Below are positions 12,947 to 40,387 of a stretch of DNA of 64,000 nucleotides, piece after piece. Under the pieces are notes generated by a model. It had not been told where the DNA came from and did no database searches. It saw only the letters and a program-made list of their open reading frames with translations. Each line of letters starts with the position of its first letter. The first letter of the stretch is position 1. Both the position numbers and the translations under genes were made by a program. The stretch is from Gammaproteobacteria bacterium (GTDB taxonomy: Bacteria; Pseudomonadota; Gammaproteobacteria; UBA4575): positions 997 to 64,996 of the forward strand of contig JBFGJY010000003.1 of NCBI GenBank assembly GCA_041576975.1. Reading direction: 5' to 3'.

Positions 12947-13759
12947 ATGTATCAGCTACTTTTAATCTTGTTAATTTGTGCACTAATTAGTGCGTGCAGC
13001 AGTTCCTCATCTGGAGGGATGCCTAAAATTCCTAGTACTGAATCTAGCTCATCATCCTCTAGCGAATCGGAAAGTTCATCTGAATCATCAAACGAGCAAA
13101 CTCAAGCCAGCCAAGAAAGTGAGTCCTCTGAATCATCAAGCGAGCAAACTCAAGCCAGCCAAGAAAGTGAGTCCTCGGCACAAGAAAAGGATTCCTTGAG
13201 TAAAGAGCAGCAAGGGGGCGCGCCTGCGAACGCTCAAACTGAGGAAGAAATGGTAGCGGTATTAGATAAAAAGCTCGAGGAAGAACTACAAAAATATGAT
13301 GAACAACTGCATGGTGAACTTGAAAAGGCTGAAGCCGAAAAACAAGCTCAAGCGGCACAGCGTGAGGCGATGCAGCAACAAGGTGATTTAGATTCAGAAG
13401 AAGATGCAGAGGAAGGCGACCTTGAAGGAGGGCAAGAATCAGCGGGAGAACAGGAACCAGCGGGAGAAGATGAACAACTAGCTAAAGCGGACGCACAACA
13501 AACTCAATCAAGTGCTGGTGCACAAAATGAAGAGGGTGATAATAAATCGAGTTCCGGCAATCAGCGTAAAGGCTCTCGCGGTGCTGCGCCAGACGATATC
13601 CCCAGTGGTGATGATGACGATGTAGTTGCAAGACAGCTTCGGGAAGCCGCCGAAAAAGAACAAGACCCTGAACTTCGTAAAAAGCTTTGGGAAGAATATC
13701 GAAAATATAAAAAACAACAAGCAAGTGCTGAAACTACAAACCCAAGTATACAACAATGA
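12947..13759 (+). CDS. acidic low-complexity (S/E/Q-rich) lipoprotein
   Basis: The lipobox is LISAC↓SSS, with ~60% S/E/Q/A/D, an internal tandem repeat and a coiled-coil-like EELQKYDEQLHGELEKAEAEKQ. Its stop overlaps the start of the next gene (ATGA). Confidence 0.65.
   Translation: MYQLLLILLICALISACSSSSSGGMPKIPSTESSSSSSSESESSSESSNEQTQASQESESSESSSEQTQASQESESSAQEKDSLSKEQQGGAPANAQTEEEMVAVLDKKLEEELQKYDEQLHGELEKAEAEKQAQAAQREAMQQQGDLDSEEDAEEGDLEGGQESAGEQEPAGEDEQLAKADAQQTQSSAGAQNEEGDNKSSSGNQRKGSRGAAPDDIPSGDDDDVVARQLREAAEKEQDPELRKKLWEEYRKYKKQQASAETTNPSIQQ
13079..13174 (+). repeat. 48-bp perfect-frame tandem duplication (2 copies, 1 mismatch) inside the acidic lipoprotein gene
   Basis: tctgaatcatcaa(a/g)cgagcaaactcaagccagccaagaaagtgagtcc occurs twice and encodes SESS(N/S)EQTQASQESES. 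Confidence 0.85.
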
Positions 13760-14943
13760 ATATCTATAAGAACTATTTTCCCTATTTATTAATTATTATC
13801 TTGATCATCAGCTTTCAGTTTATTGGATGCGCAACTACTACAGTTAAAGTAAATGATGAAGAGGAAATAGAATCCGAAACTACACAGCTTCAAGATAGCA
13901 AGTTATTGGATGTTGGGATTTTAATATTTGAGAAAGGTGAAGTCACCGAGAAACAACAAGAAAAAGAGGGCGTGCATGAAGATATTCGTAAAGCCGAATC
14001 ACGCTATATAGCCTTCCATCTAAAAGAAACCATGCAGCGCGCAAATGGCTGGGGCGCAATTCGCGTGTTGCCTACAAAATCACATATTGCTGACGTCATC
14101 GTGCAAGGCACTATCATTACTTCGAATGGAGAGAAATTGGTTTTGCAAATCCAGGTTGATGATAGTACTGGTCAATTATGGTTCGAAAAAACCTATAAAG
14201 CCTCTGCAGATGAAGAATCGTATAGATCTGTCAGACCAGGAAGAGAGGTTTACCAATATGTCTACAATCGAATTGCAAACGACATTTATAGGCATCGCAA
14301 AAAGTTAACCGATAAAGAAAGCATTACGATTCGCAATACCTCAGAACTACGCTATGCATCAGATATCTCGCCGGACCCATTTTCAAATTACATTACATCT
14401 GATCCGAATGGCCAAAGTACTATTACGCGATTACCTGCTGATGATGACCCAATGCTGGGACGCGTGCGGAAAGTCAGAGAACGTGAATTCTTATTCATCG
14501 ATACTATTAATGAGCACTACTCTAATTTTTACGATCAAATGTGGGATCCATATGAAAATTGGCGTAAATATTACTTAATTGAAGCTGAGCAAAGACGTAC
14601 GGTGGAACGTCGTGCAAATCAAACTAAATTTGTTGCGGCTTTGATAATGGTTGCCGGATTATTTAGAGGTCCTGGCTTATTTACCACGGGCGCGCTTTTA
14701 TTTAAATCTGGCATGGATATTAGCGATGAAGCAGAAATTCATAATGAAGCCATTCGCGAGCTTGGAGATTCACTGCAAGCCGAGGTTAGTCCTATGGTTG
14801 TTGAAATTCAAGGTCGTACGGTTGAACTTACAGGGTCCATCGAAGAGCAGTACCAAAAATGGCGCGAGCTATTACGTGAAATTTATTTGAATGAGACAGG
14901 CTTCGCCTTCGAAGATAGCACAATAGACAACGCCCAGCTTTAA
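13756..14943 (+). CDS. hypothetical lipoprotein (395 aa)
   Basis: Signal peptide plus lipobox …SFQFIGC↓ATTT. Translationally coupled to the upstream gene. No family recognised. Confidence 0.6.
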   Translation: MNIYKNYFPYLLIIILIISFQFIGCATTTVKVNDEEEIESETTQLQDSKLLDVGILIFEKGEVTEKQQEKEGVHEDIRKAESRYIAFHLKETMQRANGWGAIRVLPTKSHIADVIVQGTIITSNGEKLVLQIQVDDSTGQLWFEKTYKASADEESYRSVRPGREVYQYVYNRIANDIYRHRKKLTDKESITIRNTSELRYASDISPDPFSNYITSDPNGQSTITRLPADDDPMLGRVRKVREREFLFIDTINEHYSNFYDQMWDPYENWRKYYLIEAEQRRTVERRANQTKFVAALIMVAGLFRGPGLFTTGALLFKSGMDISDEAEIHNEAIRELGDSLQAEVSPMVVEIQGRTVELTGSIEEQYQKWRELLREIYLNETGFAFEDSTIDNAQL

Positions 14944-15028
14944 ATAGCCAAGCAATTCGCATGCACATAGTATGCAAGCACTATTGCACCAAATTTAATT
15001 AATAACATAGCTTAGTTTTTTTCATGCT

Positions 15029-16570
15029 ATGCATAAAAATGATTCTACTCCAATTAAAGCGATCGATTTTAAATCGCTGCAAGAAAAAACTGGTATTGAT
15101 TCTGAATTCGAACAAACATTAGTAACGAAAAAATTAATAGTTTGGCTTGTTTTTTTATTTATTTTTGCAAGCGGCATTGGTGTATTTTTATTTCTACCAA
15201 ACTACGTTGCAGAAAAACAGGCGCCTCCACCAATTTCTACCGAAATTCAAAGTCAGCCACCTCAGCCAGTTAAGATTCCTGAGCCAGTTAAAATTCCTGA
15301 ACCAGCTGTACAAGAAACACCAAACATATCTGCAGAGGAACTTAATGCACTTAAATTGCAAGCTGAAAATTTGCTACTGCAAGTAATAAAAAAACAAGAG
15401 GCACTAGAATCACAAGGTGTTAAAAAATGGGCGAATGACGAATTTTTACAAGCTGTATCCTTAGGGGCTACAGGTGATGAGCATTTTCGCAAACAGCATT
15501 TTAATGAGGCTATTAATGCCTACGAGCAAGCTATCGATGCATTACAGCATTTAGAAGAACTAATTGCTCCCACGCTTGCTAAACACTTACAACAAGGAGA
15601 GCTTGCCTTGACTCAAGGCGAGAGCGATGCAGCTGTTTATAACTTCGAACTTGCTAAAGAGATCGATGCACATAACATACAAGCACAAAATGGCTTAAAA
15701 CGTGCTGAAACCATTGAAGAATTATTTACATTACTGGAAAAAGGCGGCAACTTAGAAGCTGCAAACCGTCTTGCTGATGCTAAACAATCCTATCAGCAAG
15801 CAATTAGTTTAGATCCACTATCAAGCGAAGCCAAAGCTGCAATGAACAGGGTTATAGCTCGTTTAAAAAAAATTGAACTTTCACGCTTATTAGCGCGTGG
15901 CTATTCTTCATTAGAAGCAAGACAATATGGAGATGCACGCAGTGCGTTTATATCAGCTCAAAAATTAGCGCCAAGTTCTAAAAAACCAAAACAGGGTTTA
16001 ATTAAAGTAGAACAAGCAGTACGCAATGAGAAAATCTCTTCTTTAACTGTTGAGGCTAATCATTTTGAAAGCAACGAAGAATGGGCATATGCTGTACAAA
16101 GCTACCAACAAATACTTGCATTATCACCCAATGCAACATTTGCTATTGATGGCATCACGCGTAGTCAACAACGAGCATCACTACTCTCAAGGCTTGATAA
16201 TTATTTAGACAATAAAGAGCGTTTAACCTCTTCTGCAGTTTCAACAGAAGTACGTGATTTATTACAAGAAATTGCACAGCTAGAAAACCCAGGGACTAAA
16301 ATTGACCAACGAGCAAATGCATTAGAAAAGTTATTGCAACTCACGAATCAGCCGATATCCATAAATCTGCAATCCGACAATCAAACTGAAGTGGTCATCT
16401 ATAAAGTTGGTAAATTTGGTCGCTTTGAAAATCAGAAAATAGAACTCAAACCAGGTAAATACACGATTGTGGGCTCACGACCAGGTTATCGTGATGTTAG
16501 AAAAATTCTCACGATTTCTGCAAATATGACAACTAAAAACATTATGGTTCGTTGTGAGGAACCAATATAA
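15029..16570 (+). CDS. membrane-anchored TPR-like repeat protein with PEPVKIPEPVKIPEP linker and a PEGA-like C-terminus
   Basis: N-terminal TM (LIVWLVFLFIFASGIGVFLFL), a Pro-rich tandem hexapeptide, alpha-helical repeat content, and a C-terminal KPGKYTIVGSRPGYRDVRKIL resembling a PEGA domain. Confidence 0.6.
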   Translation: MHKNDSTPIKAIDFKSLQEKTGIDSEFEQTLVTKKLIVWLVFLFIFASGIGVFLFLPNYVAEKQAPPPISTEIQSQPPQPVKIPEPVKIPEPAVQETPNISAEELNALKLQAENLLLQVIKKQEALESQGVKKWANDEFLQAVSLGATGDEHFRKQHFNEAINAYEQAIDALQHLEELIAPTLAKHLQQGELALTQGESDAAVYNFELAKEIDAHNIQAQNGLKRAETIEELFTLLEKGGNLEAANRLADAKQSYQQAISLDPLSSEAKAAMNRVIARLKKIELSRLLARGYSSLEARQYGDARSAFISAQKLAPSSKKPKQGLIKVEQAVRNEKISSLTVEANHFESNEEWAYAVQSYQQILALSPNATFAIDGITRSQQRASLLSRLDNYLDNKERLTSSAVSTEVRDLLQEIAQLENPGTKIDQRANALEKLLQLTNQPISINLQSDNQTEVVIYKVGKFGRFENQKIELKPGKYTIVGSRPGYRDVRKILTISANMTTKNIMVRCEEPI

Positions 16571-16617
16571 TTTCCATTAGACCTATTATAAATGACAAGT
16601 AACGCGCGACGTATAAG

Positions 16618-19023
16618 ATGATAAAACAGGTTTGTATCACCGATGCGGGAGGTCCAAGATTTTATACACACGCAGACTTCCCTTTAGCGATTGGCTCTCA
16701 TCCAGGAGCGGACATACACATTACAAGTGACAATCTAGTAACGACTACAGCATTTTTAATTATTATTGTAAACCGCACATATATCGAACTTGAAGATAAA
16801 ACTGCAAAGATAACAATTAATAATGAGCAGGTTGTAGGACAACAAGAGATTCAACACAATGACATATTACAGATTGAAGGCTCAACATTTCATTGCGAAC
16901 ATATCGGCGATACTTTTTCTATCTCTTTATATGATGATCAAGCGCATTTGGTTACAAATAATCATGACACTGCCTCTCATGGCGAATTGATCGAACCCAT
17001 ATCTTTATCAAGTACTGCTACCGCTGCACAAACCAATAAAAAGATTACTCGCCTACTATCAATTTTAGGCTTACTAGTATTCGCCATATTAGCTTTAGTC
17101 ATCGCATATGTTTTTACTGCTAAAACGTTGCTCATAGAGGTTGAACCAACACCTGATGGCATTGCATTGAGCGGAAAAATATGGCCTTTTAAAGTAAAGG
17201 GACGCTATCTAGTGCAGCCAGGGAATTATTTATTAGAAGTAATTAAATCTGGTTACTATCCGATACAGAAAGAAATTAAAGTCTCTAAATTTCAGTCACA
17301 ATCATTATCGTTTACATTGCAAAAAAAGCCGGGCTATCTAAACATATCGAGTGTACCTAAAAACGGTGTTCAAATTTTAATTAACGATAAAGAACATGGC
17401 GTTACGCCCATAGAAAAACTCGAACTAGCTGCTGGCACATACTCGTTACAAGCGTATGCAAAACGTTATCAGCCATACTCAACCCAATTAGTAATTGAAG
17501 GTAAAGAGCAAAGTCAAAATATAAATATTGAATTACTACCAAACTGGGCTGAAGTTTCCATTAATTCTAAACCAGCTGACGCTGAAGTTTGGTTGAATGG
17601 AATTAATAAAGGGGTAACTCCTTTAACTCTAGACTTGCTAGCGGGTAATTACAATGTTGAATTACGTCATACGGACTACCTGCCTTATACAAAAGAATTT
17701 TTAGTTATTGCCAATGAGCCTTTAACCCTTCCTCTAGTAGAATTGTTTAGAAATCCAAGCCATTTAGTTATTACCAGCATGCCTTCAAAGGCAATAGTTT
17801 CTATTGCAGGTATAGAACAAGGGATTACTCCTTTAACTGTGCAACTCAATCCAAATATTGAACATGTACTAACACTTACCAAACCAGGATATAGGGCAAC
17901 CCAACAAACGGTTACATTAAAACCAGGTGAACAACAAACCTTATCAGCAAAGCTTGAAGCCATTCTTGGTACCGTGATGCTGAATGTTGATCCGCAGGAT
18001 TCAGAAGTGTTTATCAACGGAAAATTTGTAGGTAGCGGTACTTTAAAATTATCTCTCCCAAGTAATACTCAAAGATTAGAAATCAGAAAATCTGGTTTTG
18101 AGGTATATGAAAAGATGATTACGCCCATTGCTGATTCTCCGCAGGTTATTAATGTGATACTAAATCGAATCACTAGCGCGACGAATATAGATAAACCTAG
18201 TTTAATACGAACTAGCCAAGGTCAAGAATTAAAATTAATATTTGGTGGAAAATTTTCCATGGGTGCCTCGCGCCGAGAACAAGGCCGGCGTTCTAACGAA
18301 ACACTGCATACTGTTGAATTACAACGACCCTTTTATATCGGTACAACAGAAGTTACAAATGCACAATTCGCAATATTTAGAGCTACCCATAGCTCAGGAA
18401 CATATAAGCGCAATGATTTATCTGGGCCTAATCTACCCGTAGCCAATGTGAATTGGGAAGACGCTGCGCGTTATTGTAATTGGCTTAGCGAAAAAGATGG
18501 CTTAGAAAAGGTGTACCAAGAACAGAATGGCGAACTGAAAGCGGTGCATCCTGTTCCTTCTGGTTATCGTTTACCAACCGAAAGTGAATGGGAATGGGTA
18601 GCACGCATGCAAAGTAACGGCAATACTCAAAGATATGGCTGGGGCAACACCTTTCCCCCTATACAAGTAACGGGCAATTATGCCGATAAGTCCGCATCAG
18701 GTATTCTCGATATCGTAATCGATGGTTATGATGACGGTTTTGCTACTGCTGCACCAATTGGCAGTTATAGAGCTAACTATTTCGGAATTTTTGATCTGGG
18801 TGGGAATGTGGCGGAATGGTGTCACGATTATCACAGTATCTACCCTAGTTTAAGTGATGAGGTCTTCATTGACCCTGTAGGCCCTGCTTCTGGTAGTAAC
18901 CACGTAATTCGTGGTGCATCTTGGAAGCGTGGTGATATCAGTAGCACGCGTCTCAGTTACCGTGACCGAGATGACAAAAAACGCATTGATGTTGGCTTCC
19001 GCATTGCTAAGTACATAGACTAG
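16618..19023 (+). CDS. multidomain membrane protein: degenerate FHA / TM / ~5 PEGA repeats / C-terminal FGE-sulfatase (SUMF1/EgtB-type) domain
   Basis: The N-terminus …LAIGSHPGADIHITSDN…LEDKTAKITINNEQV is FHA-like. A TM helix lies around residues 140-165. PEGA repeats include ISSVPKNGVQILINDKEHGVTPIEKLELAAGTYSLQAYAKRYQPY. C-terminal motifs GNVAEWCHDYH and VIRGASWKRGD are typical of the FGE-sulfatase domain. Confidence 0.75.
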   Translation: MIKQVCITDAGGPRFYTHADFPLAIGSHPGADIHITSDNLVTTTAFLIIIVNRTYIELEDKTAKITINNEQVVGQQEIQHNDILQIEGSTFHCEHIGDTFSISLYDDQAHLVTNNHDTASHGELIEPISLSSTATAAQTNKKITRLLSILGLLVFAILALVIAYVFTAKTLLIEVEPTPDGIALSGKIWPFKVKGRYLVQPGNYLLEVIKSGYYPIQKEIKVSKFQSQSLSFTLQKKPGYLNISSVPKNGVQILINDKEHGVTPIEKLELAAGTYSLQAYAKRYQPYSTQLVIEGKEQSQNINIELLPNWAEVSINSKPADAEVWLNGINKGVTPLTLDLLAGNYNVELRHTDYLPYTKEFLVIANEPLTLPLVELFRNPSHLVITSMPSKAIVSIAGIEQGITPLTVQLNPNIEHVLTLTKPGYRATQQTVTLKPGEQQTLSAKLEAILGTVMLNVDPQDSEVFINGKFVGSGTLKLSLPSNTQRLEIRKSGFEVYEKMITPIADSPQVINVILNRITSATNIDKPSLIRTSQGQELKLIFGGKFSMGASRREQGRRSNETLHTVELQRPFYIGTTEVTNAQFAIFRATHSSGTYKRNDLSGPNLPVANVNWEDAARYCNWLSEKDGLEKVYQEQNGELKAVHPVPSGYRLPTESEWEWVARMQSNGNTQRYGWGNTFPPIQVTGNYADKSASGILDIVIDGYDDGFATAAPIGSYRANYFGIFDLGGNVAEWCHDYHSIYPSLSDEVFIDPVGPASGSNHVIRGASWKRGDISSTRLSYRDRDDKKRIDVGFRIAKYID

Positions 19024-19029
19024 AGAGCT

Positions 19030-19272
19030 ATGAAATATCGAAATTTACTGCTGTGGTTATTATTAGTGGTTACACCAAGTGTTTATCTTACTTTTGTAAA
19101 TGCTGATGAAGACATAGTTGAAGATAAAGAAAAAGCTGAGCAACAAAAAAACACCCCATCCACTCCTAAAGTTAGCTCAGGCAAACGTGGCGAAATTAAA
19201 ACCTTAGAAGAATTTATTCCTAGCGAAGAAGTTTCCGCTGACAAACCAGTCGCTTTTCCTATAGATATTTAG
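19030..19272 (+). CDS. small secreted protein (80 aa) with signal peptide
   Basis: MKYRNLLLWLLLVVTPSVYLTFVNA↓DED…. Tightly packed between the flanking genes, 6 nt away on each side. Confidence 0.5.
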   Translation: MKYRNLLLWLLLVVTPSVYLTFVNADEDIVEDKEKAEQQKNTPSTPKVSSGKRGEIKTLEEFIPSEEVSADKPVAFPIDI

Positions 19273-19278
19273 TTAATA

Positions 19279-20076
19279 ATGAAAAAACATTTCCCCTATG
19301 AATTTATTTATCAAGTATTTACCTTGCTAATCATAATAATAATCGTGCATGCAGCTTATGTTGCGGTAATTCGTCCTAATGCAGAAGCTGAGCTAGAACA
19401 ACAAGCTGTGCAAATTAATATTGACAAAAATTACGTACCAAAACGATCCGTATATGTATTGATTCGTGACTATGAGCAAGAAGCATGCTTCATATTAATG
19501 TTTTGGGCCTTGTTTATTATGACGTATAAAGCTACAAATCTATTTCGTGAACGCAGCTTGTTAGAAAAAGATATTCTACACGCTAAAGAAGGGATAAAAT
19601 TTTTACCAGAAGATGCGCACGAGCTTTCTAGACAAATTCAATCTTTACCTACAGAGGAACATAATTATCTTTTGCCGCGTGCATTACAAGTTGCATTGCA
19701 TCGCTTTAGTTCAACAAGAAACATTCAAGACGTTTCATCTGCAACCAATATTGTTTGTGAATCAGAGTCTGAACGACTTGATTCTGAGTTGTCAATTATT
19801 CGATACATTACATGGGCTATTCCTTCTATTGGTTTCTTGGGAACGGTGCGTGGTATTGGTGATGCATTAGGGCAGGCACACAAAGCTGTAGAGGGGGATA
19901 TTGCAGGTGTAACCGAAAGTCTAGGAGTAGCCTTTAATTCTACATTGATTGCATTATGCATTAGTATTGTCTTGATGTTTATTGTGCATCAGATACAACT
20001 TCTACAAGAAAGATTTATTTTAGATACACAAAATTACTGCAACAACAATTTAATACGCCACTTACAAGTCCCGTAA
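19279..20076 (+). CDS. MotA/TolQ/ExbB-family proton-channel protein
   Basis: Signature region AIPSIGFLGTVRGIGDALGQ…IAGVTESLGVAFNSTLIALCISIVLMF. Compare ExbB/TolQ GLLGTVxGI…IAxGIAEALITTAxGL. Confidence 0.75.
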   Translation: MKKHFPYEFIYQVFTLLIIIIIVHAAYVAVIRPNAEAELEQQAVQINIDKNYVPKRSVYVLIRDYEQEACFILMFWALFIMTYKATNLFRERSLLEKDILHAKEGIKFLPEDAHELSRQIQSLPTEEHNYLLPRALQVALHRFSSTRNIQDVSSATNIVCESESERLDSELSIIRYITWAIPSIGFLGTVRGIGDALGQAHKAVEGDIAGVTESLGVAFNSTLIALCISIVLMFIVHQIQLLQERFILDTQNYCNNNLIRHLQVP

Positions 20077-20079
20077 AGG

Positions 20080-21453
20080 TTGCGCTCCATGGCGACAGTA
20101 GTAATTGATATTTACGACAGTGGTGTACTGATAAGCGATGGAGATCAAGTTCTAGCCAGTAGTGCAAGCTGCGCCTTAATTGAATCCGATAACTCCATAA
20201 TTATTGGAGAACTTGCCGAACAACAGGCACATCTACGCCCTCGTGAAATTTGTACTCAATTTTGGAGCCAACTATCGGCTACTAGCAACACAAAGCATGT
20301 AGTCAGTAACGCCGAACTCGCATTTAAACATCTCCAGTATGTATGGAAACAACTTTCTAAACAGAACTATGAAGTCATTTTGGCTACCCCAAATTTATTG
20401 ACTAAACAAGATTTAGGGCTGTTATTGGGGATATGCGAAAAACTATCGATTCCAGTGCTAGGCTTAGTAAATAAAGCTGTACTCGCACTGCAAGGACCCG
20501 TTACAAAATCCAAATCTAAGATTGTCTATTTAGATGTTTTACAACAACAAATTACAATAACAGAAATTTTGCAAACTGAATCGAGCGTTTCTGCATTACA
20601 GCCTAGTTCCGTTCTGAAACATGGCCTGCAATCTTTAACTAACAATCTTGCAAAGTTTATTGCGGAAAAATTTGTTGCTGAAACACGTTTTGATCCAATG
20701 CATATAGCAGAAGATGAACAACAGTTTTTTGACAAACTAGCTCACTGGCTAAAGACGTTAGAAACATGTGATTCAACTGAATGTATATTAACCTCAAAAT
20801 CAAGTCATTATAGTATTCAGCTAGATAAAAAAATCTTACTAAATATAAACCAAATTGCATTCAATGAAATTACAACAAGATTGAAGGCTTTTTCCACTGA
20901 CCAAGACGCGGTAGTAGTCATATGTTCGCCAACTTGTGCACAAGTATTTGGACTCCTTGATTTTTTAATGACGTTGCCAGGATGCGCGATACATTTATTA
21001 GATCAAAATAGCATTGCGAAACAGGCGATACTTTACAAAGAGCAAATCAATTCAAAAGACAATAAGATACACTACACAACTTCACTAGAGAGGAATCAAG
21101 GTGCACAACCCTTAACCTTGAAATTTCATGCTGGATCTTTATCAAAACTAGATACTATTCCAACTCATTTGTTACTCAATGATCAAGCATTCCCACTCGT
21201 ACAAGAAGTTTTTGTAACTAAAAACGAGAATAGTGAAGGCCTAACTATAAATAGTATCTATAGTGATAATGCGGTTTGCAAAATTTCCACAAATGGTTTG
21301 CTTGTAGAAATTGAAAATTTAAATAACTACACAATCAAATTTAATGGCAAGGCATTATCGACACGGAGTTTAGTTCAAATCGGAGATCGTCTATATATTG
21401 AAGAGAATAATTACGAAATATATTTTATTGAAGTAAATTACCATGAAACGTAG
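20080..21453 (+). CDS. cytoplasmic Hsp70/actin-fold (ASKHA)-like protein with degenerate phosphate-1 motif; possible FHA-like C-terminus
   Basis: N-terminal MATVVIDIYDSGVLISDGDQVL…NSIIIGELAEQQA…RPRE parallels DnaK IIGIDLGTTNSCVAV…TPSIIAY…LVGQPAKRQA…NP, but lacks DLGTTNS. No TM segment. Confidence 0.5.
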   Translation: MRSMATVVIDIYDSGVLISDGDQVLASSASCALIESDNSIIIGELAEQQAHLRPREICTQFWSQLSATSNTKHVVSNAELAFKHLQYVWKQLSKQNYEVILATPNLLTKQDLGLLLGICEKLSIPVLGLVNKAVLALQGPVTKSKSKIVYLDVLQQQITITEILQTESSVSALQPSSVLKHGLQSLTNNLAKFIAEKFVAETRFDPMHIAEDEQQFFDKLAHWLKTLETCDSTECILTSKSSHYSIQLDKKILLNINQIAFNEITTRLKAFSTDQDAVVVICSPTCAQVFGLLDFLMTLPGCAIHLLDQNSIAKQAILYKEQINSKDNKIHYTTSLERNQGAQPLTLKFHAGSLSKLDTIPTHLLLNDQAFPLVQEVFVTKNENSEGLTINSIYSDNAVCKISTNGLLVEIENLNNYTIKFNGKALSTRSLVQIGDRLYIEENNYEIYFIEVNYHET

Positions 21454-22534
21454 AACTGTAAACGCATTTAGTTTAGCTTTTTTAGATGTAATGTTTTGCG
21501 GTTTTGGTGCTGTCATATTGTTTTTCATGATCATCAACGCAAATACGCATGTAAGAAGAGATAAGATTAATTATGAAGTTCAAGGAGAGGTTACAAAGCT
21601 TGATGTAAAAGTAAAGGATGCTAAAAAGTTCTTAGTACAACTTAAAAATTCCGTTCAAGTATTAGATGATGAGTATATAAAAACTCAAGGTCGCTCAAAA
21701 AAAATTATAGAAAATATTCAAATTGATAAAATCCAGTTAGCCCAACAACGTAAAGCAACTTTAGCCAGGTTACAAAATATCAATCAACTAAAAGCTGATT
21801 TGAGATCTCTCGAGGAAGCCAATGAACGCTTGGAAGGTGGTGCGATGGATGCGCAGGCCCAGGGAGATCGATTACGTTATTTTGCTGGACAAGGACAACG
21901 ACAGTATTTAACTGGTTTAAAAATGGGTGGCGAGCGAATTCTGATTTTAGTGGATAGCTCCGCCAGCATGCTTGCAGACAGAATCATCAATGTATTGCGA
22001 TTTCGAAATTTACCGCCTGAAAAAAGAATACTTGCAGCAAAGTGGCAACAAGTTCTTTACACCGTAGACTGGATTACGACACGTATACCACCATCAAGTA
22101 AATTCCAAATCTATACCTTTAACGAAAAGAGCGCACCTGTATATACAGTAGCAGGTATAGAATGGTTAGATGGTGGAAATGTAAAGCAGTTAAATGCTGC
22201 AGTAAGCGGCTTTTACAATACCGTTCCAGGTAAAGGTACCAGTCTTTATAATGCATTTAAAAGTATCGATAAATTATCCCCACCACCAGATAATATTTAT
22301 CTGTTAACAGATGGCTTACCTACACAAGGCGAATCAAAGCCTTTTAGTACAAAAATAACTGCCAAGGCACGTAGAAAACTCTTCAGAAAAGCACTAGAAA
22401 AACTACCAACCGGAATACCGGTTAATATAATTTTATTTCACATGGAAGGAGATCCTGATGCATCAAGTGAATATTGGAAACTAGCACAAAAAACCAATGG
22501 CGCTTTTTTTAGCCCTTCTAAAGATTGGCCTTAA
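21443..22534 (+). CDS. ExbD/TolR/MotB-like TM anchor (conserved Asp) + coiled coil + vWA domain protein, paralogue 1
   Basis: N-terminal KRR…AFSLAFLDVMFCGFGAVILFFMI parallels ExbD/TolR …INVTPFIDVMLVLLIIFMV, with the catalytic Asp in the TM. A heptad-rich region follows. The vWA MIDAS is ILILVDSSASM (DxSxS). Confidence 0.7.
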   Translation: MKRRTVNAFSLAFLDVMFCGFGAVILFFMIINANTHVRRDKINYEVQGEVTKLDVKVKDAKKFLVQLKNSVQVLDDEYIKTQGRSKKIIENIQIDKIQLAQQRKATLARLQNINQLKADLRSLEEANERLEGGAMDAQAQGDRLRYFAGQGQRQYLTGLKMGGERILILVDSSASMLADRIINVLRFRNLPPEKRILAAKWQQVLYTVDWITTRIPPSSKFQIYTFNEKSAPVYTVAGIEWLDGGNVKQLNAAVSGFYNTVPGKGTSLYNAFKSIDKLSPPPDNIYLLTDGLPTQGESKPFSTKITAKARRKLFRKALEKLPTGIPVNIILFHMEGDPDASSEYWKLAQKTNGAFFSPSKDWP

Positions 22535-22537
22535 AAA

Positions 22538-23545
22538 ATGAAAAAACGTAGAGGCATAGAAATTTTCAGCTTGTCTTTTTTAGACTGTGTATGCTGTGGA
22601 TTTGGCGCACTTATTTTACTGTTAGTGCTATCAAAAACTGCTGAGCCGGTAATTTTTGAAGAGTACAGCAAAGATCTAGACAAAATAGTTGCAAAGTTGC
22701 AAGAAGAGTTATTTGAATTACGCGGTGATGCACATATTTTAAATCGCGAACTTGTCAGCAAAAAAGAACAGATTGCTCAAGAAATTGAAAAAATTGCACG
22801 CCTACAGGGCGACTTGTCATCAATCAAAGGACAATTTTCTGCTTCCAAAGATGATGCAACTATACAAAATAAAATCGAGGGCCAATTAGCTAATGCTAAA
22901 CAAGACCTCACGGAAGAGATGCGTCGCTTGCAAGAACAAAAACTTCCTCCGCGCAGCGAGCCCGATGCAACTGTAGGAGGTATTCCTATCGATAGTGAAT
23001 ATATTATTTTTATTATTGATACTTCTGGCAGTATGTTTAATCACGGCTGGGGGTCGGTGCAACAAAAACTCACTGAAGTATTAAATGTATATCCAAAAGT
23101 TAAAGGCATACAGGTCATGAATGACATGGGCGAATATATGTTTTCACAGTATGCTGGACAGTGGATCCCTGATACACCTGCGCGTCGCAAAGCTGTATTG
23201 AAACGCTTACGTAACTGGCAACCATTTAGCAATAGTAGCCCGGTAGAAGGAATTACAGCTGCAATTCGTACATTTTATTCAAAAAATAAAAAAATTAGTC
23301 TGTATGTATTTGGGGATGAATTTACTGGGCCATCAATTGAATCAGTGTTAAATGAAGTAAACCGAATAAATAAAAAAGACAAGCATGGTAATCGTCGCGT
23401 TCGTATTCATGCAGTAGGGTTTCCAATTCAATTCATTCGCCCTGAAAAAGAGCAGATCACAGGAATCCGCTTTGCTACCTTAATGCGCGCCTTGTGTGAA
23501 CAAAATGGTGGCACCTTTGTAGGACTTAATTCTCACACACGTTAA
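22538..23545 (+). CDS. ExbD/TolR/MotB-like TM anchor + coiled coil + vWA domain protein, paralogue 2
   Basis: N-terminal KKRRGIEIFSLSFLDCVCCGFGALILLLVL. Coiled coil. The vWA MIDAS is IIFIIDTSGSM. Confidence 0.7.
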   Translation: MKKRRGIEIFSLSFLDCVCCGFGALILLLVLSKTAEPVIFEEYSKDLDKIVAKLQEELFELRGDAHILNRELVSKKEQIAQEIEKIARLQGDLSSIKGQFSASKDDATIQNKIEGQLANAKQDLTEEMRRLQEQKLPPRSEPDATVGGIPIDSEYIIFIIDTSGSMFNHGWGSVQQKLTEVLNVYPKVKGIQVMNDMGEYMFSQYAGQWIPDTPARRKAVLKRLRNWQPFSNSSPVEGITAAIRTFYSKNKKISLYVFGDEFTGPSIESVLNEVNRINKKDKHGNRRVRIHAVGFPIQFIRPEKEQITGIRFATLMRALCEQNGGTFVGLNSHTR

Positions 23546-23744
23546 CTTACCAAATATAACTTATTCGCTAGCACTGACTAAATAGTTGTCGCATACTGTG
23601 AATAACTATTTGAATTGAAGTAGTTTTCTACAATTTTTTTATCTTTTCATCAAATCCTATTTCAACAGGCTTTAAGTGCATTTTATCGTTAAAAATCTGC
23701 CGCTCATAGCTTCAAAGCGGGCTTACCAATTAAAGGAGTACAAA

Positions 23745-24326
23745 ATGTTATCTGCAAACAATTATCAAATTCTGACATACAGGTTTTTGAAGGGCTTTAT
23801 TAAAAACATCATCTTTATCGTTTTATGTTGTGTGTGGCTTAGCTTGACTGCATGCGGCGGGAAAGAAGATGAACAAGCTGTAAGTTCTGAAGAAGAACTA
23901 GAAGCAAAAAATGAAACACCAGTTGAAAAATCTACCAATAAAGATATTGCAGCAGAGATACAGGCTAACAAGGAAAAATGGTTATCGCATGCGGTCAATG
24001 AATATCAGATCGAAATGCAAAAAATATGCTTCTGTGCACCAGACGTGGTTCGCCTTATGATTTTTGAAATAGCAAATAATGAAATCAAGACGGCACGTTA
24101 CGCAGACACAGGCGATGAAGTAGATCCGAGTCACTACAACCAATACAGCACAATTGAAGGAATATTTTTATTGGTAGAACAGGCGTTAGAAAAAAATCCA
24201 GCAGATATATCCATCGCCTATGACGAGGAATATGGTTACATCAAAGAATTTAGCGTTGATTATCAGGTACATATTGCGGATGACGAAATTACAATAATTG
24301 CTTCAAATATGAAACCAAGCAAGTAG
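23745..24326 (+). CDS. hypothetical lipoprotein
   Basis: An AAGGAG Shine-Dalgarno lies 7 nt upstream of ATG 23745. The ORF track starts earlier, at 23676. Lipobox LSLTAC↓GG. A Cys-containing C-terminal domain (ICFCAPD). Confidence 0.55.
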   Translation: MLSANNYQILTYRFLKGFIKNIIFIVLCCVWLSLTACGGKEDEQAVSSEEELEAKNETPVEKSTNKDIAAEIQANKEKWLSHAVNEYQIEMQKICFCAPDVVRLMIFEIANNEIKTARYADTGDEVDPSHYNQYSTIEGIFLLVEQALEKNPADISIAYDEEYGYIKEFSVDYQVHIADDEITIIASNMKPSK

Positions 24327-24352
24327 ACGAATATTATGGGTTGGACTTTTGT

Positions 24353-26383
24353 ATGTATAAATTAGTTAAATATTTTCTAGTTATTTTAGTTTTATTTATA
24401 TTTACTAGTTCAGCTCAAGCAATTCAAACGTTACCGATTGAAATCAATAGTGAAAGTTTCCAAATTGAATACTGGCCAAGCTATTTTGCAAATGAATTAG
24501 ACATTCAGTTTATGGATGATACTGACACGGATACAAATGATATAAATATCGAATTTTATCGAGGAAAAATAGTTGGTCATCCAGATACTCTAGTGACACT
24601 TTCTAAAGTAGGGGACGATTTAAAAGGATTGGCTTTTTTCTACGGCCAGTATTATAAAATTGCGGGTTCAATGTCGAATCTCAGCGAGCAGCCCTCTGCA
24701 TCTATGGAAATTTCCGAGGTCAATGTCACTGATATGGCCCAACGTATGACTCGCGAAATGTGTCCTATCCATACGCCAGAACATCACGACATGCAAATGA
24801 CAGCGATGGCTACTATGAATATGAACACAAATGGTTCGCCTCCAGTTGCTTTTGCAGTGGGTAACGTCAATCTAGTTGCAGATGTCGCGTTGGCCTTAGA
24901 CCCTCAATATGTTTTGATTCATGGTGGAGAAACTAACGCTGTCGTCAAGGCGTTACAAATATTAGATCAGGCCGATATGTTTTATCGCCAAGCCAAGCCC
25001 GCAAATGGGGCCGGAGGACTAGGCATCGCATTAAATAACATTAGCATCAGGGTTTTCAGTAATGCATTGCCATTTGGTGTTGCTGATATCGAAGACCCCA
25101 ATCCAAGTCTGGCCAATGGCAACCAGCCTGAAATAGATGCATCTGCGTACCTCAATAGAGTTCAAGTTAATAGTAACGCGCTGTTTGGAAATTTAAGAAC
25201 GGTAGGTGCAGTATTTACCGGTTATGACTTAGATAACACAGTGGTAGGTGACGGAGTCGCTGGCTTAGCTTTTCTTTCTACCTCATGTAGCTCATTAGGA
25301 GTGAGTGTTGAAGAAGGATGGGGTAATGATAGTGCATCGGCTGTAATCACTGCGCATGAAATAGCCCATAATTTTGGTTCTTGTCATGATGGATCCCCCA
25401 TTCTTGATGCAGCAAATAATATATGCCCCATTAGCTCAGTTGGTTGCCCGGCAAACGGACCATATATCATGGCACCTTTTGTTAATCCAGCTGCCACGCA
25501 GTTTTCTGAATGTTCAATTGCCAATGTAACCTCTCACATTAATGTTCAAACCTGTTACAAACAACCAATTGATATTCAGATTACTCTACAAAACATCGTG
25601 CCTGCTGCCGCTAATGCATTAACTCAAGGTAACACAAGTGTACGCACATTCAGTATAGGTAACATGACTGATGTTACCTTAATGAACGTAAACATATCAG
25701 GCTCTCTCGAAAACCTTAGTGATCCTAACAATCCAAATACAGAATATACGACGGTTACACTTGAAGGTAATGCCTGCACTATCGCGGCTAGCCGCCAAAC
25801 CTACACATGTACTATTTCATCTATTGATGCTAACAATGCGCAAACACAAGCTATTGTTGAAACGGTCACCGCAACAGGTACTGGACAATTCATGTCAGCT
25901 ACAGAATATAAAAATGTCGCATCTGAACAGAGAGTAGATATTGAACCTCAAAATAGTATCGTAGCGCTTACGCAAACTATAAATGCACCAGTCACGCCTC
26001 CAGCTGCACCAAGTAATGTACAAGCTACATTGCTCAGCAACGGAAATATTCAAGTAAGCTGGACAGATAATAGTAATAATGAACAAGCCTTTATAATTGA
26101 ACGCAGTGAAGATGGTGGCACTACATTTGATGTCATAGCAGCAAATCAAGCTGCTAATTCAACAAGCTATATCGATACCAGCGTCGTCGAAAATACAACA
26201 TACACTTATAAAGTTTCTGCAAGCAATAGTATGGGCGCTGCACTTGCTGCAAATACACCAAGCGTTACTACATCTACTAGTGTTGCTACTTCTTCCGGAG
26301 GTGGTGGCGGCGGAGGTGGTGGTGCTTTCTATCTATTGACAGTTTGCTTGCTGTTAGCTCGAGCTTTAACTAAGTTTAGATAA
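24353..26383 (+). CDS. secreted metzincin (reprolysin/M12B-like) zinc metalloprotease with fibronectin-III domain and GlyGly-CTERM-like sorting tail
   Basis: Signal peptide …TSSAQA↓. Zinc site HEIAHNFGSCHDG (HExxHxxGxxHD). Fn3-like …QVSWTDNSNNEQAFIIERSEDGGTTFDVIAANQAANSTSYIDTSVVENTTYTYKVSA…. C-terminus SSGGGGGGGGGAFYLLTVCLLLARALTKFR*. Confidence 0.7.
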   Translation: MYKLVKYFLVILVLFIFTSSAQAIQTLPIEINSESFQIEYWPSYFANELDIQFMDDTDTDTNDINIEFYRGKIVGHPDTLVTLSKVGDDLKGLAFFYGQYYKIAGSMSNLSEQPSASMEISEVNVTDMAQRMTREMCPIHTPEHHDMQMTAMATMNMNTNGSPPVAFAVGNVNLVADVALALDPQYVLIHGGETNAVVKALQILDQADMFYRQAKPANGAGGLGIALNNISIRVFSNALPFGVADIEDPNPSLANGNQPEIDASAYLNRVQVNSNALFGNLRTVGAVFTGYDLDNTVVGDGVAGLAFLSTSCSSLGVSVEEGWGNDSASAVITAHEIAHNFGSCHDGSPILDAANNICPISSVGCPANGPYIMAPFVNPAATQFSECSIANVTSHINVQTCYKQPIDIQITLQNIVPAAANALTQGNTSVRTFSIGNMTDVTLMNVNISGSLENLSDPNNPNTEYTTVTLEGNACTIAASRQTYTCTISSIDANNAQTQAIVETVTATGTGQFMSATEYKNVASEQRVDIEPQNSIVALTQTINAPVTPPAAPSNVQATLLSNGNIQVSWTDNSNNEQAFIIERSEDGGTTFDVIAANQAANSTSYIDTSVVENTTYTYKVSASNSMGAALAANTPSVTTSTSVATSSGGGGGGGGGAFYLLTVCLLLARALTKFR

Positions 26384-32151: not shown

Positions 32152-33981
32152 TTATTCAACAGTAACGGATTTGGCTAAATTGCGTGGTTGGTCGACGTCG
32201 GTGTTTTTCAAAATGGCAACGTGATAGGCAAGTAGTTGTAATGGAACAGTAAAGATTATTGGTGCTACAGCGTTTTCGGGTGCATCGACTTCTATCACAA
32301 TGGTGTCAGGTTCTGAAACAAATCCAGAGCTGACATCTGCAAACACATGCAGTACGCCGCCACGTGAACGAACTTCTTCTAGATTGGATTTTAGCTTCTC
32401 TAGTAATTCATCATTGGGTGCCACAGCAATGACAGGAATTTTGTCATCTACAAGTGCAATGGGTCCGTGTTTTAATTCGCCAGCAGGGTAGGCTTCGGCG
32501 TGAATATAAGTAATTTCTTTTAGTTTTAACGCACCCTCCATCGCCACCGGATGATGAATACCACGGCCTAAAAACAACGCGTGCTGTTTATCGCCATAGT
32601 GTTTCGCTAATTTTTTGATCTTGGCATCTAGTTCTAATACTTTGTTAATTCGGGTTGGAAGGTTTGTAAGTTGCTCAACTAATATTTTTTCAAGCTCTCC
32701 GTGTAAACTATGACGACGACCCGCAGTAATCACAAGCAACAATAATGCTACAAGTTGAGTGGTAAAGGCCTTGGTGGAGGCTACTCCAATTTCAGGTCCA
32801 GCATGGGTCATTAACACGAGATCCGATTCACGAACTAATGAGCTTTCCGGAACATTACAAATAACCAGTAAGCCTATGTAGGATTCTTGTTTAGCTTGTT
32901 GCAGGGCCGCTAGCGTATCTGCGGTTTCACCAGACTGTGAAATGGCTACAAACAAAGTCCCAGGCTGGACTACATGTTTGCGATAACGAAATTCACTGGC
33001 GACATCCACAAAACAAGGAATGCCAGCAAGTTCTTCAAACCAAAACTTAGCAATGAGCCCGGCATGGTAACTGGTACCACAAGCGATAATTTGTATGACT
33101 TTTGTTTGATCTAAAATTTCTTTTGCTTTGGGACCAAGAATTTGTTCGGCAACATGGCCATAGATTAATCTTCCCTCAAGTGTGTCAGCGATGGCTTGTG
33201 GTTGCTCATAAATTTCTTTTAGCATGTAGTGTGGGTAACCACCTTTATTTGCAGCATCAGAAGATAGTTTGCTAATTTTTGAAGCACGCTCTACTACGGC
33301 ACCCGTATGATCAAATATTTTTATTGCATCACGTGTGATTTGTGCAATATCGCCATTCTCTAAAAATATAAATTTATGAGTTTCTTTTAATAAAGCCTGT
33401 ACATCTGAGGCAATAAAGTTTTCCTTCTCGCCGATGCCAATCACTAATGGGCTTCCGCTACGTGCAGCAATTAATTTTTCTGGGTCATTTTTATCAATCA
33501 CGCCCAGTGCATAAGCACCTTTTAAATCTTTTATGGTTTTGCTTACAGCTTCAAAAAGATTGTTATCTTGATCTAAATAGAAAACGATTTGATGTGCAAT
33601 TACCTCAGTATCGGTATCTGAAGTAAAGCTAAAACCTTGCTTAGTTTGTTGTGCTTTAAGTTCTTCGAAATTTTCAATAATACCATTATGAACAATTGCA
33701 ACTCGGTTATTACATATATGCGGATGTGCGTTGCTTTCTGCTGGTTCCCCATGCGTGGCCCAACGAGTATGTGCAATACCCAGGTCTCCTGCAAGCGCAG
33801 ATTCGTCTAGAGCATTACTTAATTCACTTACTTTGCCTGTCTTACGTATCCGTTTTAAATCTCCATTTGTAAGCACAGCCATGCCTGCAGAATCATAGCC
33901 TCGGTATTCCAGGCGACGCAGACCTTCTAATAAAATGTGTGATACATCTCTATTTGCAATTGCGCCAACTATTCCACACAT
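32152..33981 (-). CDS. glmS: glutamine--fructose-6-phosphate aminotransferase
   Basis: MCGIVGAI… with an N-terminal nucleophile Cys. 609 aa. Two SIS domains, and it ends …KSVTVE. Confidence 0.95.
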   Translation of the reverse strand: MCGIVGAIANRDVSHILLEGLRRLEYRGYDSAGMAVLTNGDLKRIRKTGKVSELSNALDESALAGDLGIAHTRWATHGEPAESNAHPHICNNRVAIVHNGIIENFEELKAQQTKQGFSFTSDTDTEVIAHQIVFYLDQDNNLFEAVSKTIKDLKGAYALGVIDKNDPEKLIAARSGSPLVIGIGEKENFIASDVQALLKETHKFIFLENGDIAQITRDAIKIFDHTGAVVERASKISKLSSDAANKGGYPHYMLKEIYEQPQAIADTLEGRLIYGHVAEQILGPKAKEILDQTKVIQIIACGTSYHAGLIAKFWFEELAGIPCFVDVASEFRYRKHVVQPGTLFVAISQSGETADTLAALQQAKQESYIGLLVICNVPESSLVRESDLVLMTHAGPEIGVASTKAFTTQLVALLLLVITAGRRHSLHGELEKILVEQLTNLPTRINKVLELDAKIKKLAKHYGDKQHALFLGRGIHHPVAMEGALKLKEITYIHAEAYPAGELKHGPIALVDDKIPVIAVAPNDELLEKLKSNLEEVRSRGGVLHVFADVSSGFVSEPDTIVIEVDAPENAVAPIIFTVPLQLLAYHVAILKNTDVDQPRNLAKSVTVE

Positions 33982-33982
33982 A

Positions 33983-35356
33983 CTATCTTTTCTTTTTTAC
34001 TTTTTTAGGACGTTGCCAGTTTTCTACAGTGACTTGTTTGCTACGTGCTAGTGTAAGTTTTTCTTTGGGCGAATCTTTGGTTATGGTCGATCCTGCGCCA
34101 ATGGTAGCGCCATCACCGATTGTGACGGGTGCTACAAATTGTGTGTCTGAGCCAACAAATACGTTATCACCAATGATGGTGCGATGTTTGTTAGCCCCGT
34201 CATAATTACAAGTAATCGTGCCAGCACCAATATTGACATCTGTGCCTAGGTCGCTATCCCCAATATAGCTTAAGTGATTAATTTTACTGCCCGTTTTAAT
34301 ATTGGAATTTTTAATTTCAACAAAGTTGCCGGCTTTGACATTTTCACCGAGCTTTGTATCTGGTCGAATGCGTGCAAATGGCCCTAATTCGCAGTTACGC
34401 CCGATCAAAGCATTTTCAATGTGGCAGTTTGCATGAATGCAAGTGCCTGCTTCAATAATTGTATTAATTATCACGGCATTAGCACCTACCTTAACACCAT
34501 CACCGAGGTGGTTATTACCTACAAATACTGTATTCACATCAATTTCTATATCTTTACCAATTTGTAGTTCCCCGCGCACATCAATTCGATTTGGGTCCAT
34601 TAGTGTTGCGCCATTATTCATTAATTGCTCCGCAATGCGGCGTTGATAAATTCGTTCTACTTCTGCAAGTTGAGATTTATTATTGATTCCAAGTACTTCA
34701 TTAGAGTTATCACAGACGATAGCTTCAACTTTACATTGATCCTTCACTGCTAGCCCAATGCAATCGGTTAAGTAATATTCCTGTTGTGCATTGTCATTAT
34801 TAATTTGTGCGAGCCATTCTTTTAACAAATTCGAACGCGTTGCAAGAATTCCTGTGTTGATCTCATTAATAGCCAGCGTTTTACTGTCAGCATCTTTTTG
34901 CTCCACGATACACTGCACCTTGTGTTGTGCATCGCGCACGATACGTCCATACCCAGTCGGGTCATTTAACTTTGCAGACAATATAACAAGTTGATGTTGT
35001 ATTAATTGTTCAATGAGTGGCTGTAACGTTACAGATGCTAATAGCGGCACATCCCCATATAGAATCAGAACATTTTGATCGTCATCTAAATTTGGCAATA
35101 CTTGTTGAACTGCATGGCCGGTGCCCAATTGTTCACTTTGAAGGCACCAATTTATGGAATCATCATCAATCACCGCTTTAACACGATCAGCTCCATGCCC
35201 GATCACCACATGGATCGCTTCTGGGGATAAACTTTGTGCGCACTTTATTACATGAGCCAACATCGGTTTGCCTGCTACTTTATGCATAACCTTTGGCAGA
35301 TCACTATGCATACGTTTGCCCTGGCCTGCAGCAAGAATGACGATGTGTAACCCCAT
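33983..35356 (-). CDS. glmU: bifunctional UDP-GlcNAc pyrophosphorylase / GlcN-1-P acetyltransferase
   Basis: N-terminal ILAAGQGKRM and C-terminal left-handed β-helix hexapeptide repeats. 457 aa. Adjacent to glmS. Confidence 0.95.
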   Translation of the reverse strand: MGLHIVILAAGQGKRMHSDLPKVMHKVAGKPMLAHVIKCAQSLSPEAIHVVIGHGADRVKAVIDDDSINWCLQSEQLGTGHAVQQVLPNLDDDQNVLILYGDVPLLASVTLQPLIEQLIQHQLVILSAKLNDPTGYGRIVRDAQHKVQCIVEQKDADSKTLAINEINTGILATRSNLLKEWLAQINNDNAQQEYYLTDCIGLAVKDQCKVEAIVCDNSNEVLGINNKSQLAEVERIYQRRIAEQLMNNGATLMDPNRIDVRGELQIGKDIEIDVNTVFVGNNHLGDGVKVGANAVIINTIIEAGTCIHANCHIENALIGRNCELGPFARIRPDTKLGENVKAGNFVEIKNSNIKTGSKINHLSYIGDSDLGTDVNIGAGTITCNYDGANKHRTIIGDNVFVGSDTQFVAPVTIGDGATIGAGSTITKDSPKEKLTLARSKQVTVENWQRPKKVKKKR

Positions 35357-35525
35357 TGTATTTATTTAACGCTATTCGAATTCAAAGACTGTAACTGTGT
35401 TGGATCCATACATTGTGTAACAAGAGCTAGTATCAAGATAGCTTCTCATGCTTCGGGATTCACCGAATGGATAAGTAAAGTTGTCGGTGGAAAGTGCTAG
35501 TACGTATCAGCAGCAATAAGAGCGA

Positions 35526-35948
35526 TTATCTTTTTAGTTTGCGCAATCTCTCGATCATACGAAGTTGCTCGGCGGCTCTAACAAGTTCAGCTTGTGCCTT
35601 GGCCGCATCAAAGTCGCCTTTTTGGTCTTTTAGGGCATCTTCAGCACGCTGTTTAGCTTCCAAGGCCTTGGCTTCATCAAGATCTTCGGCGCGGATAGCC
35701 GTATCTGAAAGCACTGTCACGACATGAGGTTGGACCTCCAGAATACCGCCGGATACATAGAGATATTGATCTTCATGGCCTTCAATTTCGATTTTCAATT
35801 CACCTGGTCGAAGGCTGGTGACCAAAGGGGTGTGACGTGGGTAAATGCCGACATCACCCATCACTGCAGGTGCAAACACAGCAGAGATAGTGCCGGAAAA
35901 AAGTTCTTTTTCCGCACTCACTACATCTAGATGAATCGTCATGGCCAT
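35526..35948 (-). CDS. atpC: F0F1 ATP synthase subunit epsilon
   Basis: 140 aa. [19 protein letters not shown]…, and its position at the end of the atp operon. Confidence 0.9.
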
Positions 35949-35957
35949 ACCTCCTCC

Positions 35958-37346
<1,389 letters not shown>

Positions 37347-37377
37347 TTACTATGTAAATTAACTATTAAATCAATTA

Positions 37378-38241: not shown

Positions 38242-38253
38242 TACGCTATTGCT

Positions 38254-39795: not shown

Positions 39796-39830
39796 TTTCG
39801 ATTCCTCTTATTTGCCCTTAGCTAAAATAT

Positions 39831-40367: not shown

Positions 40368-40387
40368 TTGCCTAGATATCTACTTTG

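Follow-up and report, generated by a model that had tools for sequence, protein, structure and literature searches.

Tandem vWA-headed membrane proteins as putative B subunits of a TolQ-type motor encoded within a conserved nine-gene operon

A 64,000-nucleotide stretch of a gammaproteobacterial genome assembly (GCA_041576975.1, contig JBFGJY010000003.1, positions 997 to 64,996 of the forward strand; the whole of this stretch is referred to here as the window) contains two adjacent genes encoding membrane proteins that end in a domain of the von Willebrand factor A (vWA) type. We favor the possibility that the two proteins are paralogous B-type (axle) subunits of an ion-driven 5:2 motor of the TolQ/ExbB family, the A subunit of which would be the product of a gene at 19279-20076. 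Our reasoning is that: (i) no other gene for a B subunit was found, and both the pore threonines of the TolQ-like protein and an Asp in the transmembrane (TM) helix of the vWA proteins are conserved; (ii) this helix is conserved beyond what anchoring would need, the predicted topology is N-in and there are two genes for a position occupied by two copies and (iii) the stalks of the two proteins are matched in length and the genes are tightly packed. The idea, which was raised in a first-pass annotation of the window, is a rediscovery of a published computational prediction. In that work (PMC12204202, Mol Biol Evol 2025), TM-tethered vWA proteins, mostly in heterologous pairs, are described as co-occurring tightly with tolQ homologues that lack tolR/exbD; they are described as having a TolR/ExbD-like trans-pore helix and a conserved Asp, which is ringed by Thr in complex models made with AlphaFold3. 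What is new here is the colinear nine-gene operon, the state of both metal ion-dependent adhesion sites (MIDAS), a non-catalytic FGE-like domain, the cytoplasmic parts with FHA and Hsp70-like regions and a quantified account of how the similarity of the helix to ExbD fails to be demonstrable.

The first gene of the pair (paralogue 1; 21443-22534, + strand) encodes 363 aa, in which a basic N-terminus is followed by a TM helix at approximately aa 8-31 with D15 (codon at 21485-21487, + strand), a helical stalk to aa 131, a conserved linker (aa 132-164) and a vWA head (aa 165-363). The second (paralogue 2; 22538-23545, + strand) encodes 335 aa with a basic N-terminus, a TM helix at approximately aa 9-32 with D16 (codon at 22583-22585, + strand), a helical stalk to aa 133 and a vWA head (aa 155-335). 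Both open reading frames lie exactly where the first-pass annotation had placed them, the peptides that it quoted (MKRRTVNAFSLAFLDVMFCGFGAVILFFMI, MKKRRGIEIFSLSFLDCVCCGFGALILLLVL, ILILVDSSASM and IIFIIDTSGSM) are all present, and the ExbD string that it used for comparison is indeed from E. coli ExbD. It was also right to call the proteins paralogues: BLASTP aligns residues 2-177 with 27% identity (E=1e-11), and hhalign of the two family profiles gives a probability of 99.2% (E=2e-19). The stop codon of the upstream gene (TAG, 21451-21453) overlaps paralogue 1, whose ATG is at 21443, and paralogue 2 starts 3 nt past the stop of paralogue 1; overlapping or adjacent junctions of this kind support the idea that the motor genes would be co-expressed.

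The proposed layout of TM helix, helical stalk and vWA head was reproduced by structure prediction. In the AlphaFold2 model of paralogue 1 (81 sequences; mean predicted local distance difference test score (pLDDT) of 78.5) a single unbroken helix, residues 8-131, makes up both the TM segment and the stalk, and is followed by a linker of low confidence (127-156) and a domain at 165-363 with a pLDDT of approximately 90. In the model of paralogue 2 (pLDDT 70.7), residues 12-100 and 107-133 are helical, and residues 155-335 form a domain. The stalk helices in the two models end at matching points (residue 131 in paralogue 1 versus 133 in paralogue 2), and the lengths of both proteins are almost constant across the family. 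As for the coiled coil that had been claimed, the helical part of the claim stands, with the AlphaFold2 helices as its main evidence, and heptad periodicity weakly backs a coiled coil, the 3.5-residue peak ranking first in paralogue 2 and second in paralogue 1. The linkers between stalk and vWA domain (window 21836-21934 and 22940-22999) are modelled with low confidence, yet contain invariant residues (G149, G151, R153, Q154, Y155, G158 and G163 in paralogue 1; G148, I149, P150, D152, S153, E154 and Y155 in paralogue 2), which suggests a binding or docking motif.

Relatives were collected by a scan of one genome per species, which gave 80 loci. The closest (70-77% identity) are from uncultured gammaproteobacterial metagenome-assembled genomes (MAGs), some of them labelled Thiotrichales, and more distant ones (42-51%) belong to records that carry the labels Desulfobacterales, Kuenenia, Thermodesulfovibrionia, Rhodospirillaceae, Woeseiaceae and Lentisalinibacter, locus L056 being that of the cultured Lentisalinibacter sediminis; the vWA family as a whole comprises 264 clusters at 50% identity (E<=1e-30). 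Both vWA genes are found in tandem in 73 of the 80 loci; at each of the remaining seven, the second gene either runs into a contig end or falls below 80% query coverage. By phmmer across these loci, nine genes are colinear in nearly every locus with enough flanking sequence, in several phyla, in the order lipoprotein, lipoprotein, TPR protein, FHA-PEGA-FGE protein, small protein, MotA/TolQ-like protein, Hsp70-like/FHA protein, vWA1 and vWA2.

The strongest conservation in each paralogue falls in the TM helix, which scores 0.74 in paralogue 1 and 0.80 in paralogue 2 where the full-length proteins score 0.51 and 0.58, and which in both cases is conserved above the vWA head. This is not what the TM anchors of two other single-pass proteins of the operon look like; those of the PEGA and TPR proteins are conserved below their own proteins (0.32 versus 0.39 in one and 0.29 versus 0.35 in the other). 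The core of the helix common to both paralogue families, S-[LM]-[SA]-F-[LI]-D-x3-C-G-[FL]-G, is invariant, and no orthologue whose N-terminus is intact lacks the Asp: D15 is kept in all 80 orthologues listed and in deeper representatives, and D16 is an invariant column, found in all 73 orthologues listed. Among the deeper representatives (full-length, 32-55% identity) the motif with its Asp is present in 92 of 109; of the 15 exceptions listed (out of 17), most are truncated gene calls, and four retain the F-L-D triplet in a variant motif. The ExbD/TolR type is marked by one TM helix, N-in, in which a conserved Asp lies close to the cytoplasmic side, and both paralogues have this feature as far as topology can be predicted.

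The gene at 19279-20076 (+ strand), two genes upstream of the vWA pair, encodes a TolQ/ExbB/MotA-family protein of 265 aa (PF01618, E=3.9e-14), which we presume to be the pentameric A subunit. Its closest NCBIfam model is that of TolQ (TIGR02796, 1e-6). Consistent with a role of this kind, the invariant residues T189 and T222 line up with T145/T178 of TolQ and T148/T181 of ExbB, and conservation within the protein peaks in the two pore helices (0.88 and 0.81). The protein also has approximately 43 extra residues after the first hydrophobic segment and a second conserved hydrophobic stretch at aa 66-86, neither with a counterpart in E. coli TolQ or ExbB; it may therefore have four TM helices, as MotA does. 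When jackhmmer was run with E. coli ExbD and TolR, no homologue was found in the window or in any of the 80 loci, whereas the TolQ query found the A gene in 67 of these loci and in the window.

These data also bear on the possibility that the vWA proteins are passive membrane-anchored scaffolds or adhesins of the BatA/BatB kind. The helix, with its Asp and small-residue motif (C-G-F-G-A), would then pack against its counterpart or against other single-pass proteins, not in a motor pore, and the TolQ-like protein would act alone or with a B subunit encoded elsewhere. There are likenesses to Bat proteins, which are likewise tandem and membrane-anchored with a vWA domain; BatB (3ibs) is among the structural matches of paralogue 1, and a TPR protein is encoded nearby, as it also is in Bat operons. 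The helix shows no similarity to ExbD/TolR or MotB, and in two Steroidobacteraceae MAGs (L061 and L063) the vWA pair stands by itself, a MotA-like gene being absent within 10 kb. Nevertheless, we consider a purely structural role unlikely. It leaves unaccounted for the missing ExbD/TolR gene at loci where the A gene was so readily found, a helix that is conserved above the vWA heads and far above the other TM anchors of the operon, and A-subunit pore helices that are equally conserved. Moreover, no MoxR ATPase or DUF58 gene, as in Bat systems, was found in the operon or its conserved neighbourhood, which has the TolQ-like motor gene instead. With regard to the two Steroidobacteraceae loci, the pairs (L061:10001-12116 in the first) lie among peptidase, CopD and AraC genes, and their helices are the most divergent of all (C-A-F-G-S).

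The assignment of the pair as B subunits has to be weighed against several results that speak against it, among them the outcome of every direct comparison of the helix with known B subunits. Pfam ExbD (PF02472) did not match the full proteins at E<=0.1, neither ExbD nor MotB_plug matched any of 30 N-terminal segments at E<=10, and a search of 177,635 PDB sequences with a profile of the helix returned no ExbD, TolR, MotB or ZorB. A comparison set of 12 N-termini was assembled from ten diverse plasmid-borne ExbD genes, found by tblastn against plasmids, together with E. coli ExbD and TolR. Alignment of the helix to this set with hhalign gave a probability of 0.65% with the Asp out of register, and on a position-specific scoring matrix (PSSM) made from ExbD/TolR the paralogue helices scored 4.5 and 1.2 bits against a null mean of 3.9 (standard deviation 3.9; 876 TM-like segments), which is no better than 43-75% of these random segments. 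An Asp in a hydrophobic segment is by itself not rare, being present in 92 of the same 876 segments (10%). On the side of the A subunit, E173 of TolQ (E176 of ExbB) is not conserved and the position holds Val, with an almost invariant Asn (N220) nearby. To these must be added the two loci mentioned above in which the vWA pair has no MotA-like gene nearby.

Taken together, the four tests (Pfam, the PDB profile search, hhalign and the PSSM) leave kinship in sequence between the helix and ExbD/TolR/MotB, as had been put forward in the first-pass annotation, not demonstrable, and we have rejected ExbD homology of the TM helix on these grounds. The likeness of 'FLDVM' in the window to 'FIDVM' in ExbD is peculiar to the window's clade; only F-[LI]-D is common family-wide. 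An alignment no better than that of random TM helices had been named beforehand as refuting the idea, and this is formally what the PSSM gave. However, E. coli MotB scores only 8.5 on the same matrix, out of register, so that an accepted B subunit fails too, and because of this the matrix cannot discriminate true B subunits. The interpretation of the pair as B-type subunits accordingly draws on context (the TolQ-like gene, the lack of any detected ExbD/TolR gene, the pore threonines and the conservation of the helix) and not on sequence similarity to ExbD, TolR or MotB. The 'heterodimeric plug' of the earlier proposal fares differently in its two parts; a plug is not borne out, and the heterodimer is something that we infer.

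The assignment of the heads is more straightforward. In Foldseek searches of the PDB the top matches of both models were vWA domains (E=7.8e-8 for paralogue 1 and 3.3e-7 for paralogue 2), and the matches include TFIIH p44, CLCA1, the inter-alpha-inhibitor heavy chain and vWF A3. Pfam VWA_2 matches the window copies below its cut-off and an orthologue (P0079) above it; PF24161, a precomputed domain on some homologues, did not recur in our local Pfam scan. The DxSxS motif reported earlier is invariant in both paralogues. The MIDAS of paralogue 1 is complete, all of D171, S173, S175, T266 and D290 being invariant. In paralogue 2, D161, S163, S165 and D260 are invariant, and the Thr position is taken by an equally invariant Ser, S233, which hhalign aligns with T266; this second site would be complete only if Ser can substitute for Thr. 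The heads are predicted to be periplasmic, as had been proposed, because the positive-inside rule puts the N-terminus in the cytoplasm: the 7-9 residues preceding the helix contain on average 3.4-4.1 Lys/Arg, and the net charge of the 15 that follow the helix is negative.

This topology is an obstacle to an alternative in which the vWA domains are cytoplasmic, the helix is only a tether and the proteins work with the Hsp70-like/FHA protein in phospho-threonine signalling or in a conflict system, in the manner of vWA-FHA-kinase triads or vWA-MoxR. The operon does include two FHA domains and an Hsp70-like protein, and vWA domains are well documented in cytoplasmic NTPase-linked systems (PMC7159879). 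We nonetheless regard a cytoplasmic location as highly improbable; the charge pattern gives a cytoplasmic N-terminus in both families, no kinase, phosphatase or MoxR is encoded in the operon or its flanks, and other proteins of the operon have signal-like or TM segments that are followed by large domains of an extracytoplasmic type.

The remaining genes of the operon, all on the + strand, may provide the surroundings in which the putative motor would work. Between the A subunit and the vWA pair, 20080-21453 encodes a protein of 457 aa with an Hsp70/actin-like N-terminal region, a C-terminal FHA domain and no strong TM segment. PF00498 (FHA) matches 14 of 22 orthologues, with a best E-value of 4e-13; the window copy has no Pfam match, the FHA domain being degenerate in the window's clade and clear in distant orthologues. 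Compared with the PDB, the family profile found FHA domains and, weakly, the Hsp70 SSB1 (E=1e-3, residues 70-272). The gene is absent from two loci (L077 and L078). On the other side of the A subunit, 19030-19272 encodes a protein of 80 aa (found at 16 loci by phmmer) whose N-terminus has a hydrophobic, signal-like segment and whose C-terminus has a conserved acidic motif (EEFIPSEEVSADKPVAFPIDI). This is preceded by a gene at 16618-19023 for a protein of 801 aa that combines an FHA-like N-terminus, a TM helix (aa 147-165), five PEGA domains (1e-48) and an FGE-sulfatase-like domain (2e-42). The protein matches the GldK/PorK model at 3e-29, which is below the cut-off, and its FGE-like domain is closest to the FGE of Streptomyces (2.6e-24) and matches PorK as well (3.7e-13). 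Because both catalytic cysteines of FGE are replaced in the alignment, by Arg and Ser, the domain probably serves for binding and not as an enzyme.

Further upstream are genes for a TM-anchored TPR protein of 513 aa (15029-16570; TPR_2, 1e-10; TM helix at aa 36-54), whose position in the operon is conserved, and for two putative lipoproteins. One of these (13756-14943; 395 aa, lipobox FIGC) has no domain match, is conserved in position and passes the coverage filter at 51 loci. The other (12947-13759; 270 aa) is acidic and rich in Ser and Glu, with a conserved C-terminal motif (DDDVVARQLREAAE...LW.EY) that reads DDDVVARQLREAAE...LWEEY in the window. The C-terminal motif of this lipoprotein, or that of the 80-aa protein, is a candidate MIDAS ligand. 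When the operon was scanned for promoters and terminators, promoter-like sites were fewer than in shuffled sequences, and no usable signal emerged.

Beyond the operon, the window encodes a DUF6174 protein (23676-24326) and a reprolysin-like M12 metalloprotease with an fn3 domain (24341-26383), which follow the vWA pair only in close relatives within L001-L020. The protease ends in a Gly run, a hydrophobic helix and a basic tail (SSGGGGGGGGGAFYLLTVCLLLARALTKFR), an arrangement that we take to resemble a GlyGly-CTERM sorting signal. Approximately 9 kb downstream of the operon, glmS, glmU, atpD, atpA, parB, parA, rsmG and mnmG lie on the - strand (window 32152-46919). A gene set of this kind is usually located near the replication origin, and the region of the operon would, given this set, be core chromosomal.

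Such a location has a bearing on whether the cluster could be a Zorya-like anti-phage defence system in which the MotA-like motor serves as an envelope sensor. PADLOC gave weak ZorA matches for the A subunit (E=5e-5 and 0.035) and nothing else; there was no match to a ZorB, ZorC or ZorD model and no nuclease or other effector, and ZorA is outscored by TolQ and ExbB as a match to the A subunit. The operon is, moreover, colinear across phyla, and its place in the window is close to the mnmG-rsmG-parAB, atp and glmUS genes. We have rejected a defence system on the strength of the PADLOC result, and of the explanations considered here it is the one to which we give the least credence.

If the vWA proteins are B subunits of a TolQ-type motor, a plausible scenario is that the Asp-bearing helix of each lies inside the A pentamer and that the helix of approximately 100 residues that follows would span the periplasm, probably paired in a heterodimeric coiled coil with a length of approximately 14 nm (as judged from the helix length), with the vWA head and its metal-ion site at the far end of the stalk. 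As protons flow, D15 and D16 would be protonated and deprotonated at the T189/T222 ring, causing the pentamer to turn relative to the dimer, and the heads would grip an acidic residue on a partner in the envelope that is either pulled by the motor or anchors it. Candidate partners encoded in the same operon are the FHA-TM-PEGA-FGE-like protein, the TPR protein, the two lipoproteins and the small acidic secreted protein. Regulation of the motor would probably fall to the Hsp70-like/FHA protein in the cytoplasm and to the FHA-like region at the N-terminus of the PEGA protein.

A broader model, which we offer tentatively and which may well not hold, is that the nine genes from 12947 to 23545 encode a trans-envelope proton-driven machine for which there is no published description as a whole; a literature search for other descriptions of the operon matched only PMC12204202. 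Such a machine would have a rotating heterodimeric shaft with two non-identical MIDAS heads that engage a periplasmic scaffold (the PEGA/FGE-like protein, the TPR protein and the two lipoproteins), would have FHA domains and the Hsp70/actin-like protein as its gate on the cytoplasmic side, and would resemble GldLM-GldK in layout while having arisen independently from a TolQ-type motor. If the vWA proteins are B subunits as predicted, the 5:2 ion-driven motors (MotAB, ExbBD, TolQR, GldLM and ZorAB) would gain a class with a heterodimeric axle ending in metal-dependent binding heads, and proton flow would be coupled directly to the grabbing or pulling of a specific envelope ligand with no adaptor of the TonB/TolA type. 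The nine-gene operon provides a concrete parts list for experiments.

The closest precedent is the set of vWA pairs in PMC12204202, for which Idiomarina loihiensis is the reference. By its features, the window pair is like them in being a tandem heterologous pair of TM-tethered vWA proteins with a conserved Asp in the helix, a tolQ-like neighbour without tolR/exbD and a conserved Thr ring, all of which are present here; the passages of that work consulted here do not treat a nine-gene operon, FHA and Hsp70-like proteins, a PEGA-FGE-like protein or the state of the MIDAS. With both ExbB-ExbD and TolQ-TolR, this system shares a homologous A subunit that has both pore threonines, and a B-type partner with a single TM pass, a predicted N-in topology and an Asp in its helix close to the cytoplasmic end. 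It differs from them in that the partner has a long stalk and a vWA head in place of the periplasmic alpha/beta domain of ExbD and does not match PF02472, in having two different B genes instead of one, in the loss of ExbB E176/TolQ E173 and in that no third partner of the TonB/TolA type was detected.

The likeness to the flagellar stators MotAB/PomAB lies in the proposed 5:2 logic and in the B subunit's single helix and its protonatable Asp, but the vWA proteins have no Pfam match to MotB_plug or to an OmpA-like peptidoglycan-binding domain. The E. coli MotB query finds only a separate OmpA-family gene downstream in other lineages. In approximately 19 loci (L066:7039-7812; also, for example, L052, L056, L072 and L080), labelled Woeseiaceae, Rhodospirillaceae and other Gammaproteobacteria, this gene directly follows vWA2 and encodes a protein with a signal peptide, a Gly-zipper, a coiled coil and a peptidoglycan-binding domain of the OmpA family; the window lacks the gene. 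Its product may serve as the cell-wall anchor, which in MotB is part of the protein itself. Finally, no homology to GldM, GldL or GldN was detected, and the resemblance to GldLM/PorLM with GldK/PorK, of gliding motility and type IX secretion, is architectural only; the FGE-like protein described here has its inner-membrane anchor after an FHA-like region, whereas GldK/PorK is a lipoprotein component of a ring. What the two systems have in common is a MotA-like motor, a dimeric partner serving as a long periplasmic shaft, which in our case would be the vWA pair, and non-enzymatic proteins of the FGE fold.

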